Below, one piece after another: positions 3,971-18,500 of a stretch of 32,000 bases of DNA; position 1 is the first letter of the stretch; every line of letters begins with the position of its first letter. The translations under genes were made by a program, and so were the position numbers. The notes beneath the pieces are model-generated. The model made no database searches and was not told the DNA's origin. It worked only from the letters and a program-made list of their open reading frames with translations. Location: positions 750 through 32,749 of the forward strand of contig JBHLPL010000004.1 of NCBI GenBank assembly GCA_048939465.1, given 5' to 3'. This stretch comes from Promethearchaeota archaeon. GTDB taxonomy: Archaea > Asgardarchaeota > Odinarchaeia > Odinarchaeales > JBHLKK01.

Positions 3971-3984
3971 TATAACAGCGTTAT
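3971..3984. promoter_or_regulatory. Candidate operator, site 1 (TATAACAGCGTTAT), abutting the cysE TATA box
   Basis: ATAAC-N3-GTTAT palindrome; the same motif recurs at 4010 and 7870. Confidence 0.65.
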
Positions 3985-3991
3985 TTTTATA
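3983..3991 (+). promoter_or_regulatory. Probable TATA box of the cysE-cysK operon
   Basis: TTTTTATAA-like tract about 50 nt upstream of the cysE start, matching the archaeal TATA consensus. Confidence 0.55.
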
Positions 3992-4009
3992 AGCTACTAT
4001 CTGCATACG

Positions 4010-4023
4010 TATAACAGTGTTAA
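4010..4023. promoter_or_regulatory. Candidate operator, site 2 (TATAACAGTGTTAA), over the expected cysE transcription start
   Basis: Near-perfect copy of the ATAAC-N3-GTTAT palindrome about 20-30 nt downstream of the TATA box. Confidence 0.6.
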
Positions 4024-4040
4024 ATCGGGAGTAATCTATC

Positions 4041-4844
4041 TTGAAAAAAGACGCAGTGTGTATAGGTTGTGGTGTTGAACTCACAGACAAATATGAAAGA
4101 AAAGTTTGTGCGCAATGTCTGTTAGGCCTGAGTCTTGGAATAACTGAAGATCAATCTAAGGAGATAGTTAAACAGCTCAATGAAATACTAACAACATTTG
4201 GCTCTGATGTTGCAGCAGCTTTCAATAAAGATCCAGCAGCCAGAAGTCTAGTCGAAGTCCTAACCTCCTACCCGGGTATCCAAGCTATACTGCTTCATAG
4301 AGTTGCTCATTTCTTCTGGAACGTGGGTCTTCCTTTCATCCCGAGGTACCTTTCTAACATCACGAGGCAGATAACCGGAATCGAAATACACCCAGGGGCC
4401 AAAATAGGAAAAAACTTCTTCATAGATCATGGATCTGGTACGGTTATAGGAGAAACGGCGGAAATAGGAGATAACGTAACAATATACCAGAATGTGACAT
4501 TAGGCGGTACCAGTTTAGAGCCAGTAAAACGCCATCCAACCATAGGTAACAATGTGGTTATCGGAACAGGCGCGAAAATCCTAGGACCGATAACCATAGG
4601 GGATAACGTGAGAGTAGGAGCCAACTCAGTGGTAACTAAGGATGTCCCCCCAAACTCAGTTGTAGTGGGAGTTCCAGGTAGAATAACAAGAAGAGAAGGA
4701 AAGAAGGTTTCTAGATTAGAAATAGACTTGGAACATGGCGATCTGCCGGATCCTTTGGTTGACCTACTGTCAAAAGTAGAGAACCGAGTGGAGGATTTAG
4801 AAGAGAAAATCAGGGAGATGAAAAACGTTAGGAAGAATATATAA
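4041..4844 (+). CDS. cysE: Serine O-acetyltransferase with N-terminal Cys4 zinc-finger extension
   Basis: DPAARS...YPG...HRVAH helical domain, hexapeptide repeats ([28 protein letters not shown]), KRHPTIG and HGDLPDP motifs. Confidence 0.96.
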
Positions 4845-5757
4845 CAACATAATCGAGACCATAGGTCGCACACCGCTGGTTCGGTTGAATAGAATAACCA
4901 AGGGTTTGAATGCCCACGTTCTGGTAAAATTGGAGTCATTTAACCCCGGTGGCAGTGTTAAGGATAGAATCGGCATGTCAATGATCGACGCTGCTGAAAG
5001 GGCCGGCCTGATAAGACCAGGTGACAGAATAATTGAACCAACTTCGGGTAATACCGGGATTGCCCTGGCAATGGTAGCTGCGGCCAAGGATTATAAGCTG
5101 ACGTTAACGATGCCCGAAAGTATGTCTGTCGAAAGAAGAAAGATACTCACAGCTTTGGGCGCGGAGACGGTTCTTACTCCCGCATCTGATGGTATGAAGG
5201 GCGCTGTTGAGAAGGCTGCAGAAATCGCTAAAAAAGAAGGGAAAGCATTCATTCCGCAGCAATTCAGAAACTCAGCGAATCCTGAAATTCACAGAAAGAC
5301 TACCGCAATAGAGATACTCGAAGACACAAACGGAAAGGTTGACGCGTTCGTAGCAGGAGTAGGTACAGGAGGTACTATCACAGGAGTAGGCGAGGTTCTG
5401 AAAGACAGATTAGGGAATAGAGTTCAAATAATCGCAGTTGAGCCCAAAGATTCGCCGGTCCTGTCGGGAGGAAAACCAGGGCCACACAAGATTCAGGGCA
5501 TAGGAGCGGGATTTGTTCCAGAAGTGTTGAATACCGAAGTCATAGACCGCATAATCCAAGTCGAAGAGATCGATGCTGTCGAAACAACCAGGAAATTAGC
5601 AAGACTAGAGGGGATATTTGCGGGGATATCCTCTGGCGCTGCTGTGTGGGCAGCTCTCCAAATTGCCAAAAATGCAGCTCCGCGAAATAACATCGTAGTA
5701 GTTCTGCCTGACACTGGCGAAAGATATTTGACCACAGAATTGTTTGAGTATCCGTAG
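4837..5757 (+). CDS. cysK: Cysteine synthase A (O-acetylserine sulfhydrylase); start codon non-canonical or uncertain
   Basis: [14 protein letters not shown] (PLP lysine), [15 protein letters not shown] and HKIQGIGAG motifs. The frame continues upstream of TTG-4885 as [20 protein letters not shown] to a TGA at 4819-4821. ATA-4837 is given as a provisional start. Confidence 0.95.
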
Positions 5758-5818
5758 GTACCCACAAGATTCCGCTAAGAATCAATTTATGTTACTCTTA
5801 TTGAATTGGATGATAAGA

Positions 5819-6178
5819 ATGGAACTTCCGTGCGAGACAGCAGCGAAATATGTATTCCCCATCTTTAAATCAATTGTGGCAAAGGAACTCGTACAGAAAT
5901 ACAATTTCACCCAAACAGCGGCGGCAGAGAAGCTTGGAACGACCCAGGCTGCTATAAGCCAATATATTCATTCGAAACGTGGATACAGGAGGGACACAAA
6001 ACAGCTTAGAGAGATCCTGCCCGTGATCCAAGCTGTTGCCTGCAAAACCGCTGATCAAATAGCGGCCGAAGATCTAAAGACTGACGAGGTCATACCAAGA
6101 GTCTGCGGACTATGTATGCTAGCACGCCGGCTATCTAACATAAGCATTCGAAGAAGAATTCGCTCGACAAAGAAGTGA
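5819..6178 (+). CDS. Archaeal HTH transcriptional regulator (COG2522-like, XRE-type)
   Basis: MELPCETAAKYVFP...KELVQKYNFTQTAAAEKLGTTQAAISQYIHSKRG pattern plus a C-terminal CGLC. ATG at 5819 preferred over the ORF-track start. Confidence 0.85.
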   Translation: MELPCETAAKYVFPIFKSIVAKELVQKYNFTQTAAAEKLGTTQAAISQYIHSKRGYRRDTKQLREILPVIQAVACKTADQIAAEDLKTDEVIPRVCGLCMLARRLSNISIRRRIRSTKK

Positions 6179-6262
6179 AGAGAAGGTCCGTAATTCATCT
6201 CTTCGTAATATATTATTAGATTTCCCAGTTCAGTACTCAAATGAAGCACGTCCTTGCTTTGT

Positions 6263-7696
6263 TCAGGGAATAATATCATCTTTCTCTATTGTCCATCTGA
6301 CTCCGACAGGCGTGTCCTTAAGAGTCACCCCCATCCTTCTCAGCTTATCCCTTATCGCATCAGCTGTTTCCCAGTCCTTTCTTTTCCTTGCCTCTTCCCT
6401 CTGCTTAATCAGTTCTTCGATCTGTAGGTGCAATTCTTTCTCTTCATCCTTGAATTTCAGCCCAAAGACTTCCGAGAATCGTTTGAATATCTGTAAGGCA
6501 GTCTTTAGAGCATCTTTGTTCCTTCTTCTCTGCAGATACCCGTTTATCTCTTTCGCCAGTTCGTGAAATACTCTTAAGGCAAGTGGCGTGTTTAGATCAT
6601 CGTCCATTGCTTTGATGAATCTTTTCTCAATTGTTGCCAATTCATTCAAGAAAGCCTTCTCCGATTCCGCCTTCTTTGTGTCGGCATGTTTCATAAAGAA
6701 ATTAATCCGGCCAAATGTCTCCTTCAGCTTATCATAATTCCTCTTTGCATTAGCGGCGAATTCCTCAGTATAATTCAGTTTCTTTCGGTAATGAGCAGAG
6801 AGAAACATATATCTTACGACTTCGGGGCTGAATCTTTTGATGACGTCTTCAAGAGTTATGTAGTTCCCCAGTGATTTGCTCATTTTTCTTCCGTTGACCA
6901 AGAGATGCTCTCCGTGCATCCAATATTTGACAAAATCTTTTCCTGTGTAGGCTTCTGATTGAGCAATCTCATTCTCGTGATGGGGAAAAATCAGGTCCAC
7001 ACCGCCAGTATGTATATCCAGAGACTCTCCCAGAAATTTCATTGCAAGGGTGGAGCATTCAATGTGCCAGCCAGGTCGGACGTTCCCCCATTCGGTCTTA
7101 TAGTAAATACGTCTCCTGAGTTCTTCTGGGGTTGTTCTTTTCAATAAAGCAAAATCGCGGGGATTATCCTTGTCGTATTCATCGACGTCAACCCTTGCTC
7201 CAGCTTTTGTTTCACTTAGAATTATCTTGGAGAGTTTACCATAATCTTTGAACTTAGAAATATCAAAATAAACGCTTCCTGATTTTGTGTAAGCATATCC
7301 TTTTCTTGCCAACTCTCTGGTTATGTTAATCATATCTTGAACATGCTCTGTTGCTCGAGGGTAGTTTAGAGCTCTCTTTATGTTCAGCATATCTACGCCT
7401 TTGAAGAACTCTTTGACATATTTTTCCGTGAATTTCTTGAGAGAAAGACCTTCTTTTCCAGAGTCCCTTATTGTCTTGTCATCAATATCGGTGATGTTCA
7501 TCACATATTTCACTCTATACCCAATGTGTTCAAGGTATCTTCTAATCAAGTCTCCCATCAAGAAACTTCTGTAGTTCCCTAAATGAGGTGTAGAATAGAC
7601 CGTAGGACCGCAAGTATACATTCTGACCTCTTCTTTGCGAATTGGTTTGAATACTTCTTTCTTCTTAGTTAAGGTGTTGAAAACTCTCAAGACCAT
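6263..7696 (-). CDS. cysS: Cysteine--tRNA ligase (class I)
   Basis: YTCGPTVY...HLGN (HIGH), PGWHIECS, HTGGVDLIFPHHENE, KMSKS, and a C-terminal anticodon-binding segment ADAIRDKL...LKDT. Confidence 0.98.
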   Translation of the reverse strand: MVLRVFNTLTKKKEVFKPIRKEEVRMYTCGPTVYSTPHLGNYRSFLMGDLIRRYLEHIGYRVKYVMNITDIDDKTIRDSGKEGLSLKKFTEKYVKEFFKGVDMLNIKRALNYPRATEHVQDMINITRELARKGYAYTKSGSVYFDISKFKDYGKLSKIILSETKAGARVDVDEYDKDNPRDFALLKRTTPEELRRRIYYKTEWGNVRPGWHIECSTLAMKFLGESLDIHTGGVDLIFPHHENEIAQSEAYTGKDFVKYWMHGEHLLVNGRKMSKSLGNYITLEDVIKRFSPEVVRYMFLSAHYRKKLNYTEEFAANAKRNYDKLKETFGRINFFMKHADTKKAESEKAFLNELATIEKRFIKAMDDDLNTPLALRVFHELAKEINGYLQRRRNKDALKTALQIFKRFSEVFGLKFKDEEKELHLQIEELIKQREEARKRKDWETADAIRDKLRRMGVTLKDTPVGVRWTIEKDDIIP

Positions 7697-7710
7697 TCTC
7701 CTTCACCTGA

Positions 7711-7811
7711 AGCCGAGGAGGGGAGTTGAACCCCTTTAAACCGGTATCAGCACATCACCAATCAGCATACCAGTTTTGCAGCCGGACGCATGGCCGTTCT
7801 GCCACCTCGGC
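7711..7811 (-). tRNA. tRNA-Cys(GCA) with a 30-nt intron at position 37/38; CCA not encoded
   Basis: Minus strand: acceptor stem GCCGAGG/CCTCGGC, U73 discriminator, anticodon arm TCCGG-CTGCAA^A-CCGGT, T arm AGGGG-TTCAACT-CCCCT. Confidence 0.95.
7746..7775 (-). ncRNA. tRNA-Cys intron with box D'/C' K-loop and a second CTGA; candidate guide RNA
   Basis: AACTGGTATG-CTGA-TTG-GTGATGT-G-CTGA-T. Relaxed bulge-helix-bulge: C32-U33-G34-C35 pairs with intron GCUG with one U.U mismatch. Confidence 0.6.
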
Positions 7812-7869
7812 ATCTTTTATAGATTCGTATCCCCACTTACTAATTAAATTGATCCATATTCCGATATCA

Positions 7870-7883
7870 TATAACATTGTTAT
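7870..7883. promoter_or_regulatory. Candidate operator, site 3 (TATAACATTGTTAT), upstream of tRNA-Cys/cysS
   Basis: ATAACA-T-TGTTAT palindrome with the same consensus as the two cysE sites. It overlaps a second palindrome, TTATGAG-GT-CTCATAA (7880-7895). Confidence 0.6.
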
Positions 7884-7897
7884 GAGGTCTCATAAAA

Positions 7898-8098
7898 AGT
7901 CTACGGTTAACCCAATCGTAGACTACTCCTCCCTCGCAGAAGGAGCTGATGACTATGCTTGACCGCAGTTCCCTTCCTCTCCGCCCTTCAGGACGGAGTC
8001 TCCTTGACTTGGTTCGGATGAATAAGCTCCAAATCACTGAGAAGATCGATAGTCGCGAATAGATGTAAGTTCTCCTAGGTCCGTTTTCATCTATTCGC
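7898..8098 (-). ncRNA. Structured intergenic element A (ncRNA or non-autonomous mobile element; identity unknown)
   Basis: Four hairpins, two of which are complete only on the minus strand through G.U pairs. Shares a 28/32-nt motif with element B. Confidence 0.45.
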
Positions 8099-8216
8099 TG
8101 CCTTCTGTACATTCACATGTTTGACAATTGGAGGTGGTGGGGAGTTGATTAATACTTAAGCTAAAGAGATAAATCCGATTAGAATTCCTATTCATTCATA
8201 TTATGAGGTTACCACC

Positions 8217-9407
8217 ATGACGATGGGAGCTTTATCTGGAATAAGAGTTTTGGATCTATCTCGGGTCTTGGCAGGACCATTTTGTACCATGATACTGACT
8301 GACATGGGTGCGGAAGTCATAAAAGTAGAGGGAAAGACTGGTGACGATTCTAGATCTTTTCCTCCTTTCATCAAAGGTCAAAGTGCTTATTTCATCAACA
8401 TAAACAGAGGGAAGAAAAGCATAACACTCGATCTGAGACATAGAGAAGGAAGGAGGATATTCTTAGAACTGGTCAAATTATCCGATGTCGTTGTAGAAAA
8501 CTTCAGACCCGGGGTTATGGAGAGATTGGAATTAGGCTACGATAATTTGCAGCAGATCAATCCCCGAATCATTTATGCAGCCATTTCCGGATTTGGAGCG
8601 TACGGTCCGTATAAGGATAGGCCAGGTTATGATCTGATCGGACAAGCAATGGGAGGAATAATGAGCATTACAGGATGGCCAGACTCTCCCCCCACAAGAA
8701 CTGGAACCGCAATTGCAGATATTCTGGCGGGATTATTTTGCTGTACAGGTATTTTATCGGCACTCAATTCGAGAACGGCTACTGGAGTTGGCCAAAAAAT
8801 AGACGTGGCATTAGTCGATTCGGTCATGTCAGCTCTGGAAGCATATAACGAAATGTATCTCGTTGAGGGCCGGGTTCCCAAGAGACAAGGCAACAGATAT
8901 GAGTTTATCTATCCCTACGATACCTTCGAGGCAGAAGATGGTTGGGTTGTTGTAGGAATAGGTAATGACGATATGTGGAAGACCTTCTGTTCAATAATTA
9001 ACAGAGAAGAGCTTGCCACAGATCCAAGATTCATCACAAACGCGATGAGGATTGAGAACCATGTTGAGGCAAAAGCAGTAACAGAAGAATGGACATCAGA
9101 GAGGCCTGTACGCGACATCATGTCAACACTTGTAGAAAGAGGAATCCCATGTGCTCCTATCTATTCTGTCGAGGATACGTGCAATGATCCTCACATTGCT
9201 GACGCAAGAGAGATGATAGTGGAGATAGACCAACCTGGATTGGGGGCAATTAAGGTTGCAGGATGCCCAATAAAGATGTCCGGTACTAAGGCCATGGTGA
9301 GAGGATCTTCGCCCACTCTTGGTCAAGATACAATCAAGATTTTGGGAACGTTACTCGGATTATCAAAAACCCAGCTCAGGAAACTAAAGGACGGAAACGT
9401 AATTTGA
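8217..9407 (+). CDS. CoA-transferase family III (CaiB/BaiF)
   Basis: LSGIRVLDLSRVLAGPFCTMILTDMGAEVIKVE, NRGKKSITLDL, DVVVENFRPG and GYDLIGQAMGG (catalytic Asp) motifs. Confidence 0.95.
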   Translation: MTMGALSGIRVLDLSRVLAGPFCTMILTDMGAEVIKVEGKTGDDSRSFPPFIKGQSAYFININRGKKSITLDLRHREGRRIFLELVKLSDVVVENFRPGVMERLELGYDNLQQINPRIIYAAISGFGAYGPYKDRPGYDLIGQAMGGIMSITGWPDSPPTRTGTAIADILAGLFCCTGILSALNSRTATGVGQKIDVALVDSVMSALEAYNEMYLVEGRVPKRQGNRYEFIYPYDTFEAEDGWVVVGIGNDDMWKTFCSIINREELATDPRFITNAMRIENHVEAKAVTEEWTSERPVRDIMSTLVERGIPCAPIYSVEDTCNDPHIADAREMIVEIDQPGLGAIKVAGCPIKMSGTKAMVRGSSPTLGQDTIKILGTLLGLSKTQLRKLKDGNVI

Positions 9408-15507: not shown

Positions 15508-18500
15508 TTGGTCTTCATCAAGAAAATTGAAATGAAGGGGTTTAAGTCCTTTGGGAATCAAAAACTGATATCGCATTTTCCTAGGGGATTCACCGCCGTA
15601 GTCGGTCCAAACGGGAGTGGAAAGAGCAACATTTTGGATGCCTTTTGCTTTGTCTTAGGACACTTGAGCGCCAAAACAATGAGAGCCGGATCCTTCTCAG
15701 ATTTGATATACTCGGGCGGGGATTCATCGCCTTCTGCCAAATATGCCCGTGTAACGCTCTACCTCGATAATTCAGATGGGGGGATCCCTATCGATTCATC
15801 TTCAGTTGTGGTTGCCAGGGTAATAGATCAGGAGGGTCGGGGCGCTTACTGGCTAAATGGTAAGCGAGTGACAAGAAATCAAATCATCGATCTACTTGGG
15901 ATGGCAGGCATTTCTCCCAACGGTTATAATATTGTTCTTCAGGGGCAACTGGCCCAGTTCATCCAAATGAGTCCAGTAGATCGAAGAATATTAATTGAAC
16001 AAGTTGCAGGTATTGCAACATATGATGAAAAGAAGGAGAAAGCATTAGGCCAGCTAAAGCTAGCAGAGCAGAACCTTTCTAAAATCGAACTTCTGATCAG
16101 AGAAGTTATGAGCGAACTGGAAAGGCTGGAAAAAGAGAAGAATGATGCAGTAAGGTGGCAAGAGCTTTCAAAAGAGATCAAGAAGTCTGAAGCCTTAGTT
16201 GTGTTTAACGAACTGCAAAATACAGAACAAGAGCTATCCGGAAATCAAATACTGATCGACGAGAAGAAGAAAAGACTTGATAGACTGGAGAAGGATGGTA
16301 CTCAGCTCAGCCTAGAAGTGAGTAAGAAAAGAGAAAGATTAGAGGAAATCGATGCGGAAATTAGAACAAAACAAGAGGATGAGCTTGAGAAAGTGCGAGC
16401 TGAGATAAACGAGCTAAATCGCTTGGTATCTCAGATGGAAGCCGACTTCAGATACTTGAACAACCGATATGAAGAGGGTAAAGAAAACCTACAGAAACTC
16501 GATCATGAGAGTAAAGAGATTGAGGATCTGATTCAAAGACTGCATAATGAGATTCAGAAATTAAAGGAGCAAAAGACCGCGATTCAGTCCAAGATTGCAC
16601 AAAAGGATGAACTTACTTCCGAAATAACCCAGCACATATCCCAGAGAGATACAACATACAGCGCGAGCATAGTCAAACTCAGGAACATCCGAAAGCAATT
16701 GGACTTGAAGAGAGGCGAGCTTGCAGATATCTCGACCCAAAAGAGCGTCATCGAAAAAGAGTTGTCCTACCTTTATGAAGATCGAAAAAGTCTAGAATCG
16801 ATACACTCAGAGAGAAGCAAGAGAGTGGAAGAAACCATAAAAAGAAAAGAAACTCTTGAGGCTGAACTTAATCAAGTCAGATCTGAGATAGAATCCCTCG
16901 AAAAGCAGAAGCGGGAGGCAGATGAAGAGACACGATTAACGGTAAAACAGCTTAGGACGACTGAGGAATTGGTAAGGAACGCGAGAGAAGAAATCATAAA
17001 ACTAAAGGTACGCATAAACTCAATCAGAGAGGCGCGAGCACGCTTTCTCAGAAGCAGACCGGCTGTGCATGAAGTGCTTGAACTACGCGATAACAACGTT
17101 GTTGAAGGGATATTTGGAACTATAGCCGAGCTAGGCGTTGTTAGTTCTGAGTACGCAACCGCTTTGGAGGTCGCAGCTGGAGCTAGACTAAGCTATGTAG
17201 TTGTCAGGGACGACGATGTCGCTGCAAAATGCATAAACTATCTCAAACAGAAAAAGCTAGGCCAGGCTTCTTTCTTGCCTTTGAATAGATTAATTCTGCA
17301 GACACCCAAAGAACAGATCAGGGGTAAGGGTGTAGTAGCCCCTGCAATAGAGCTAATACGGTTTGAGGGGCAGTATAAGCCAGCTTTTGATTATGTTTTT
17401 GGGAGAACACTAATAGTAGACGATCTGAATACAGCCCGTTTCTTGAAAGCCGGCTCCAATCTTAGAAAAGTCACAGTCGATGGGGACGTCGTCGAGCCTA
17501 GTGGGCTAATGACGGGTGGCCATTACATCAAACCAGTCAAAATTACGCAGGAAGACGAAGAGACTCTGCCTAAGGTAGAGGAACAACTAAATGGCCTAAT
17601 AAAGACCCAACTGGATCTTAGAGACAAACGAGATGGCTTAATCGCCAGCATTGACAAAGTGCAAAATGAATTACTTCAAAAGAGAGAGAAGCAGAGCGAG
17701 ATTACCGCAAAATTGGAGAGCATAAACCTTCAAGTTCTGGAAGAAGAAAAGTCTCTTAACGAAATTCTTCCAAAGATGAGCGAAACTCAGGATATAGTGG
17801 ACGAGAAGAAAACGAGTCTTCAGACTTTGGAAAATCAAAGTGCCAAGGTTGAAAAAGAAACACAAGAGTTATCAAGACTAAGCGAAGAGCTAAGCGAAAT
17901 CGTTGAACGTTCTACTGTCGCTGAACTCAATGAGAAGATCAAAGCCCTTGAGAAGGAGCGTGAACAACTTAAGGATTCTGCCGCGAATATTGATGTCGAT
18001 TTGACTCAGAATCAAACTAGGTTAAACTATCATCTTCTTCCTCGAAAAGATGAGATTCTCTCAGTCATCTCTAAACTGGAAGAAATGCTTCCCGAGCTTG
18101 AGAAAGAGCTTCTAGCCAAAGAGACTGAATTAGATGAGCAGAGAGAGATATTTGGCAAATTTCACGAAGAAAAGGGAAGAATAGAGGGCTTAATAGGAAA
18201 GCTTCAAAAAGAAAAGCAAGAAATCTATCTCGGAATCCATGAGAAGACAAACAAACTCTCCGGCATGGAAAAGGAACTCATGGATCTGCGACTTGAAATC
18301 AATAGTCTTGAAGTCAAGGGAGATAACTATCAAAACAGGCTAGTCGATCTTAAGTCAAAAGCGCAGGAATACATTTTGTTTAAACCTCCCGAGATCGTTG
18401 AGATAGACGTTCGGAAACTAGGGGAAAGAGTTAGGGAACTTCAGGAGGAGAAGATGGCGCTTGAACCAATCAATCAGAAAGCGATACTCAGATACCCAAC

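Follow-up and report, generated by a model that had tools for sequence, protein, structure and literature searches.

Several described regulators come close to the system analysed here. ThiR, reportedly presented by Rodionov and colleagues in 2017 as the archaeal thiamine regulator, is said to consist of a helix-turn-helix (HTH) domain fused to a ThiN-like domain and to act as a repressor, with palindromic operators derived from comparative genomics. IscR is a member of the Rrf2 family and carries a [2Fe-2S] cluster, an iron-sulfur (Fe-S) cluster held by three cysteines and one other ligand; like SufR, it is a bacterial repressor that senses Fe-S and controls the genes of Fe-S assembly. CymR, of the same family, is the master repressor of cysteine metabolism in Bacillus and acts together with CysK. 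In the Thermococcales, the sulfur-response regulator SurR is a protein of about 230 residues with two winged-helix domains and a CxxC redox switch, and MDR1, LrpA and Phr are archaeal repressors that act by occluding the promoter. We analysed a 32,000-nucleotide stretch of DNA from a Promethearchaeota archaeon (contig JBHLPL010000004.1, positions 750 to 32,749; hereafter the window), in which a 13-bp palindrome stands at both promoters of a cysteine module made up of cysE, cysK, a gene for a small HTH protein, cysS and tRNA-Cys. This palindrome is probably the operator of a family of small, cysteine-bearing HTH proteins, and the genes behind it would form a regulon of sulfur and Fe-S supply. 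The window is contig C84 of the source genome (G000; 1.96 Mb in 152 contigs, 91% complete), which we compared with 40 relatives. G001 (78% complete) and G002 (82%) belong to the same genus, and G003, G004 and G005 to a sister genus; G003 is complete, in a single contig of 1,418,269 bp.

Asgard proteins of about 320 residues that are fused to ThiN match the window HTH protein at E values of about 8e-12 to 1e-14, and the alignment spans its Cys5, the HTH and the CxxC. These fused forms share the architecture of ThiR, whose DNA-binding domain, homologous to the window HTH, is therefore the closest characterised relative of the candidate regulator. They occur in several Asgard families (L023, L027, L029 and L039) and keep the PCE and CxxC motifs. 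The 119-residue window protein lacks the ThiN domain (PF10120) and is thus not a ThiR. The recognition helix differs as well (TQPAVSNY in the ThiN-fused forms as against TQAAISQY here), no ATAAC-N3-GTTAT site was found upstream of the ThiN-fused genes, and the regulon of ThiR is thiamine whereas the genes concerned here are those of cysteine, sulfur and Fe-S.

The likeness to IscR and SufR lies in the proposed way of acting, that of a small, cysteine-liganded, self-regulated repressor of a desulfurase and of Fe-S supply genes, and in a similar number of conserved cysteines (three). However, the fold families are unrelated, an Fe-S cluster is here a proposal only, and the regulon adds cysE-cysK, tRNA-Cys and cysS. 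CymR resembles the candidate as a repressor of genes for cysteine synthesis and uptake that is functionally coupled to cysK, the HTH gene standing directly after cysK in G000 and G021, but it belongs to another protein family; a complex of the HTH protein with CysK was neither looked for nor indicated by any of the results. With SurR the candidate shares its archaeal origin, a CxxC motif, a short palindrome of GTT/AAC triplets and a sulfur-related regulon; the order of the half-sites is nonetheless opposite, GTT-N3-AAC for SurR and AAC-N3-GTT at all the sites described here, and neither the sequence search nor the fold search of the PDB found any similarity between SurR and the HTH protein. 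Operators that overlap or follow the TATA box, or cover the start, are also those of MDR1, LrpA and Phr, which differ in protein family and in regulon. A first-pass annotation of the window knew of no described regulator of this kind, in agreement with our literature searches, which found no published description of it.

That annotation had reported three copies of the palindrome, two of them bracketing the cysE TATA box, at the TFB recognition element (BRE) and at the expected transcription start, and the third about 60 nucleotides upstream of tRNA-Cys, with no further copy between the genes of the window. All of this was confirmed. The letters at the three places are TATAACAGCGTTAT (3971-3984), TATAACAGTGTTAA (4010-4023) and TATAACATTGTTAT (7870-7883), and the symmetry is that of a 13-mer, ATAACA-N-TGTTAT, centred on one base (operators O1, O2 and O3 in Table 1). 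Variation at motif positions 6 (R) and 8 (Y) gives the degenerate form ATAACRNYGTTAT, that is ATAAC-R-N-Y-GTTAT. In the 32-kb window, ATAACANNGTTA was found at three places only, compared with 0.04 expected, and none of 100 shuffles had three. The TATA box was read from the letters, and the BRE and start were placed from the general geometry of archaeal promoters; O2 then covers the expected start (predicted near 4015), about 26 nucleotides downstream of the cysE TATA box, and is 17 nucleotides before the cysE start codon. Looser matches at 4840, 15925, 17089, 24392 and 27763 were set aside because they fall inside coding sequence: the one at 4840 encodes the conserved IYNNII of cysK, and those at 15925 and 17089 lie within an open reading frame (ORF) of 1223 residues.

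In the whole of G000 the perfect 13-mer is present in five copies, whereas ten third-order Markov simulations gave none; a further 11 sites carry one mismatch. The degenerate form occurs 14 times against two for the reversed control, and 14 out of 14 occurrences are at promoters. Since these counts exceed those of the shuffles, of the Markov simulations and of the reversed control, a chance origin of the palindromes was rejected. At 11 promoters the site directly follows the TATA box (TTTAWAT immediately followed by ATAAC). Six sites are found 17-24 nucleotides past the TATA box, where the start is expected; they are cysE O2, the second DUF6512 site and those of the paralog of the HTH gene, Hsp20, tusA and a SufT-like gene. 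Only cysE O1 and the site of a ThiS-like gene are directly upstream of the TATA box.

Tandem pairs of operators were also observed. Pairs with 18 bp from centre to centre precede a gene for a fasciclin-domain protein in G001 (L060:7692-7722) and in G002 (L064:1989-2019 and L066:3036-3066); two sites 17 bp apart precede DUF6512 in G000 (C75:6510 and 6527). In G021 the two operators before cysK-HTH abut, at a spacing of 14 bp. Such pairs suggest that the protein binds cooperatively.

We then looked at the genes behind the operators, annotated with Pfam and NCBIfam. For G000, the scan found sites at the promoters of sulfur genes, as it did in the relatives. The cysteine genes concerned are cysE-cysK, tRNA-Cys-cysS and a NifS/IscS-type cysteine desulfurase; the sulfur carriers are TusA-DsrE, a tandem rhodanese and a ThiS/Urm1-like protein. 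An FeS_assembly_P (SufT-like) protein is also a target, as are, on the metal side, an HMA-domain P-type ATPase (CopA-like) and the FTR1 iron permease. Further targets are a DUF438-hemerythrin-PAS protein, Hsp20, DUF169, DUF6512, an amino-acid permease and the HTH paralog (C11:12962-13300), whose gene is divergent from thiI. Judged by these predicted members, the regulon is one of sulfur, cysteine, Fe-S and metal, with about 15-20 promoters genome-wide, and not a private cys module. Of the regulon first put forward, which joined cysteine synthesis, the tRNA and the ligase, the joint operator held good and the restriction to the cys module did not.

Two more operator-led units were found. The unit C134:22407-24555 (L081:2408-4556) encodes a 35-residue ORF product starting with MCC, a DUF3795 protein and a second protein resembling cysteinyl-tRNA synthetase (CysRS); the latter has 420 residues and the catalytic domain, without DALR or CysS_C domains. 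The same DUF3795/CysRS-like arrangement is present in G001 (L093). At C52:4855-5019 (L003), a perfect operator is followed by a gene for a 54-residue protein with a desulforedoxin-like CxxxC ... CC-x-EPM pattern, and this protein is kept in G001 and G002.

Among the 40 relatives, enrichment of the perfect 13-mer is confined to this order, with 5, 5 and 5 copies in the genus and 2, 3, 4 and 1 in the sister genus, the control giving 0 in each case. The degenerate pattern is found 14 times in G001 and 10 times in G002, compared with two for the control, and 3, 4 and 5 times in G003, G004 and G005, compared with 0, 2 and 0. Sites are retained at orthologous promoters throughout the order, namely those of cysE, NifS/IscS, tusA-dsrE, copA, the hemerythrin gene, the rhodanese, FTR1, the ThiS-like gene, the permease, the desulforedoxin-like gene, DUF6512 and the DUF3795/CysRS-like unit, as well as in the tRNA-Cys/cysS gap. 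At these promoters the core AAC-N3-GTT is kept and the surrounding intergenic sequence has diverged. The two-site layout of cysE is conserved in G001 (L104), where the equivalent of O2 is identical, and O3 is identical there too and in the same place.

The gene order of the sister genus bears on the role of O3. There, cysE, cysK, an intron-less tRNA-Cys and cysS follow one another head to tail behind one operator, and the three sites of G003, without exception, precede this unit, tusA-dsrE-iscS or copA. The present genus has it as two separate parts, each behind an operator, and this is our best reason for assigning O3 to tRNA-Cys and cysS rather than to the CoA-transferase gene on its other side. 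Taken together, the shared operator and this history of one operon and two units indicate that co-control of the amino acid, its tRNA and its ligase has probably been under selection.

The link between the palindrome and the HTH protein came from the genes of the HTH family themselves. Homologs of the window protein are present in 27 of the 41 genomes searched. Of the 27 HTH homologs, 14 have a site with two mismatches or fewer in the 260 nucleotides upstream, and the sites in these upstream regions number 16, compared with 1.0 expected from the remainder of the same loci. The paralog of G000 has ATAGCAGTGTTAT at -41. Where the motif is rare (one to four copies in 1.2-3 Mb), every genome checked has a copy at an HTH gene: the sole copy in the 2.9 Mb of G010 precedes HTH-cysK, the sole genomic copy of G022 precedes the HTH gene, the two copies of G030 precede HTH-cysE-cysK and iscS, and the four of G032 are at HTH, iscS (two) and FTR1. 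G021 has its tandem pair after the TATA box, before cysK-HTH, and in G028 the region between the divergently oriented genes for CysK and the HTH protein holds three sites. Beyond the Asgard archaea, the pairing is found in two metagenome-assembled genomes (MAGs), one of Sulfolobales, where a TATA box and ATAACGGCGTTAT precede dsrE-tusA-iscS-iscU-HTH, and one of Bathyarchaeia, where ATAACGTTGTTAT lies 17 nucleotides before the HTH gene, with thiF and thiI as neighbours. In comparative genomics such a pattern is the usual mark of an operator and the autoregulated transcription factor that goes with it, and it argues strongly that the palindrome belongs to the cysteine-bearing HTH family.

Proteins of this uncharacterised, COG2522-like family have about 105-130 residues, an N-terminal PCE cysteine, a helix of the form LGxTQAA(I/V)SQY..KRG and a C-terminal CxxC; longer forms add C..H..CxxC. 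In the window protein, Cys5 in PCE, the recognition helix TQAAISQY and a CxxC reading CGLC stand at the invariant columns. The invariant positions of the alignment (A1) are C5, P14, L24, Y49, R54, C92 and C95, and the cysteines are invariant in 22 homologs. The likeness to Pfam HTH_3 (PF01381), whose gathering score is 23 bits, is marginal: the window protein scored just above this value, with 23.5 bits, and the paralog below it, with 19.1 bits. NCBIfam gave no meaningful match for the HTH protein, and the database names of family members are merely "transcriptional regulator". Rrf2 (PF02082) was matched by neither of the two HTH proteins, and its best score in G000 was 20.5 bits against a cut-off of 30. 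In the ESM Atlas the family is spread across archaeal phyla; the close homologs of the paralog, with 74-75% identity, are from Hodarchaeota and Promethearchaeota MAGs.

Structural comparison yielded matches to the HTH part. A sequence search of the PDB with the HTH protein returned Cro alone (E 0.52) and no solved relative. The AlphaFold model, with a predicted local distance difference test (pLDDT) value of 81, had no whole-fold match in searches with Foldseek and VIA-align wide against the PDB and in AFDB Swiss-Prot, with Z up to 5; the matches cover the HTH part alone (about 45-50 residues) and are to DeoR/SorC and XRE-type domains. A homodimer prediction with two copies (alignment A1) obtained a score of 0.15, to be compared with a mark of 0.42, and is not used as evidence.

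Some observations weigh against the operator and the regulon as proposed here. Two TATA-like elements and a divergent coenzyme A (CoA)-transferase gene make the promoter of O3 ambiguous, and the sites upstream of a TATA box, O1 and that of the ThiS-like gene, could equally serve activation. No role in sulfur metabolism is apparent for Hsp20, DUF169, DUF6512, the fasciclin protein or the amino-acid permease. The genomes beyond this order show no overall excess of the motif, meaning that the large regulon is lineage-specific. As to the HTH gene of the window, cysK is followed in G001 by convergent cysS with no HTH gene between them and with all three operators kept (cysK identity between G000 and G001 is 87-94%), and the window protein sits on a long branch, the longest terminal one in the tree (1.68). 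We do not favour the CoA-transferase gene (8217-9407) as the target of O3, for it is 333 nucleotides away and, unlike tRNA-Cys-cysS, is no conserved regulon member in the sister genus. The TATA-like element at 7891..7898, if used, would put O3 between TATA box and start; a comparable element also flanks the equivalent site in G001. Transcription on the minus strand is predicted to begin near 7868 or 7819. If the tRNA-proximal element were used, O3 would lie about 30 nucleotides upstream of it, and this position, together with the BRE-proximal upstream position of O1 and of the ThiS-like site, would suit a regulator that activates, at least where the site precedes the TATA box (cysE O1, the ThiS-like gene and possibly tRNA-Cys). 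The archaeal activators Ptr2 and TFB-RF1 bind upstream of the BRE and TATA box. Activation nevertheless appears unlikely to us, since 17 of about 20 sites occupy the start itself or the stretch that leads to it from the TATA box, where a bound protein normally prevents initiation, and since the cysE promoter pairs O1 with the start-site operator O2. The frequent overlap or abutment of motif and TATA box, and the resemblance of the outer ATA...TAT to a TATA sequence, could also point to a variant of the core promoter, or to an AT-rich promoter repeat arisen by chance, with no regulatory role. This is barely credible given that the motif takes three different positions relative to the TATA box, that it is confined, in the roughly 2 Mb of the genome, to some 15-20 promoters of related function, that the reversed control is rare, and that its GC-containing core is conserved while the flanks diverge. 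It is also very improbable that another factor binds the palindrome and that the association with the HTH family is indirect: the presence of a copy at an HTH gene in every low-copy genome checked, the 16-fold enrichment upstream of HTH homologs and the same pairing in the Sulfolobales and Bathyarchaeia MAGs all speak against it, and no regulator gene besides those of the HTH family adjoins a site in G000.

Which of the two HTH copies of G000 acts is a further point. The regulator may be the paralog, the window copy or both, since the window HTH is absent in G001 and the paralog is conserved. One could hold that the conserved, self-regulated paralog alone binds, and that the gene at 5819-6178 is a diverged copy with another role or none. 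The long terminal branch and the retention in G001 of the cysE and tRNA-Cys/cysS operators without an HTH gene between cysK and cysS would be explained in this way; moreover, G001 and the sister genus have only a gene of the thiI-linked paralog type, each with ATAGC(A/G)GTGTTAT 16-44 nucleotides upstream. For the window gene, no operator was found in the 61-nucleotide gap upstream, and the gene lies downstream of cysE-cysK with its O1 and O2. We find an exclusive role of the paralog rather doubtful all the same. The two copies have almost the same recognition helix (TQAAISQYIHSKRG and TQAAVSQYVTSKRG), so that either or both could bind, and the three invariant cysteines are present in both. In the distant G021, too, tandem operators are followed by cysK-HTH, and the cysK-linked HTH protein of this genome groups with the window copy (support 92/87), and the assemblies of G001 and G002 are incomplete. 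The assignment of the operator to the family is sound. The first-pass suggestion that the operator is bound by the HTH protein encoded between the two units is thus upheld for the family, through its autoregulatory sites, and is less certain for the gene 5819-6178 itself, which is missing in G001.

If the palindrome is indeed the operator of the HTH family, a dimer of the HTH protein would sit on it. The regulator would most likely repress, by blocking TBP/TFB or RNA polymerase, because the sites abut the TATA box, cover the start or lie at the BRE. The three invariant cysteines would sense the state of sulfur or Fe-S supply, and the supply genes would be released on loss of the signal. As for the signal, a sensor of Fe-S occupancy similar to IscR is the best fit, which we propose tentatively because the regulon comprises sulfur, iron, Fe-S and copper export and no Rrf2 protein scored above the cut-off. 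A thiol/persulfide or disulfide switch is our second guess, somewhat less probable, and a metal or another ligand accounts for the likelihood that is left.

The coordinates of the operators, promoter elements and genes are given in Table 1.

Table 1. Operators, promoter elements and genes of the cysteine locus, in window coordinates.
Feature	Position	Strand	Remarks
Operator O1, ATAACAGCGTTAT	3972..3984	.	directly 5' of the cysE TATA box, at the BRE position
TATA box of the cysE-cysK promoter, TTTTATAA	3985..3992	+	read from sequence
Operator O2, ATAACAGTGTTAA	4011..4023	.	one flank mismatch; over the predicted transcription start
cysE, serine O-acetyltransferase	4041..4844	+	Pfam Hexapep and SATase_N; NCBIfam TIGR01172, 234.8 bits, above cut-off
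cysK, O-acetylserine sulfhydrylase	4837..5757	+	Pfam PALP, E 6.7e-73; start uncertain
Small HTH protein, 119 residues	5819..6178	+	cysteine-bearing family; candidate regulator
cysS, cysteinyl-tRNA synthetase	6263..7696	-	Pfam tRNA-synt_1e, DALR_2 and CysS_C
tRNA-Cys (GCA)	7711..7811	-	Rfam RF00005, 42 bits
Second TATA-like element	7840-7851	-	closer to tRNA-Cys than the element at 7891..7898
Operator O3, ATAACATTGTTAT	7871..7883	.	perfect; 59 nucleotides upstream of the tRNA-Cys 5' end
TATA-like element, TTTTTATG	7891..7898	-	7 nucleotides upstream of O3; read from sequence

The N-terminal part of CysE (4041-4140) is an extension with two CxxC pairs, zinc-ribbon-like and kept in the sister genus. 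This four-cysteine extension is foreign to standard serine acetyltransferases and may be a regulatory or metal-binding module. For cysK, the stretch from the in-frame TGA stop at 4819 to the conserved N-terminus contains no ATG, GTG or TTG; a TTG at 4885 is the earliest canonical start and would cost about 15 conserved residues. The same state is seen in G001, whereas G003 and G004 have an ATG and a GTG at the corresponding position. The gene may use a non-canonical start codon (ATA at 4837), be coupled to cysE or contain a frameshift.

The tRNA-Cys gene has an intron of 29 nucleotides at position 37/38 (about 7746-7774), as indicated by alignment with the intron-less tRNA-Cys of G003 and G004; the intron is present in this genus and absent from the sister genus, and because of it ARAGORN, run with default settings, missed the gene. 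The start codon of cysS is 14 nucleotides past the 3' end of tRNA-Cys, so co-transcription is most likely, and the two would form one transcription unit. The 333-nucleotide gap between O3 and the CoA-transferase gene (7884-8216) showed no match in Rfam. An 81-residue ORF without family (7867-8112, minus strand) is found there, and the equivalent gap of G001 has only 134 nucleotides.

The control of cysteine synthesis, sulfur trafficking and Fe-S supply in Archaea is largely unknown, and IscR, SufR, CymR and CysB have no identified archaeal counterpart. What is gained here is a candidate regulator family, a defined 13-bp operator and a set of conserved target promoters, from an archaeon related to the Odinarchaeum group, and as the proteins are small and the sites short, the hypothesis is directly testable in vitro. 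It is unusual for tRNA-Cys and cysS to share their operator with cysE-cysK, and the evolutionary history of the unit is unusual too. With chances that we put at nearly even, the family may be a general regulator of cysteine, sulfur and Fe-S in Archaea (Asgard and Thermoproteota), which would sense Fe-S or persulfide by its three cysteines and co-repress a tRNA and its synthetase with the synthesis of the amino acid. If this is true, it would be a counterpart, at the level of transcription initiation, of the bacterial T-box logic.

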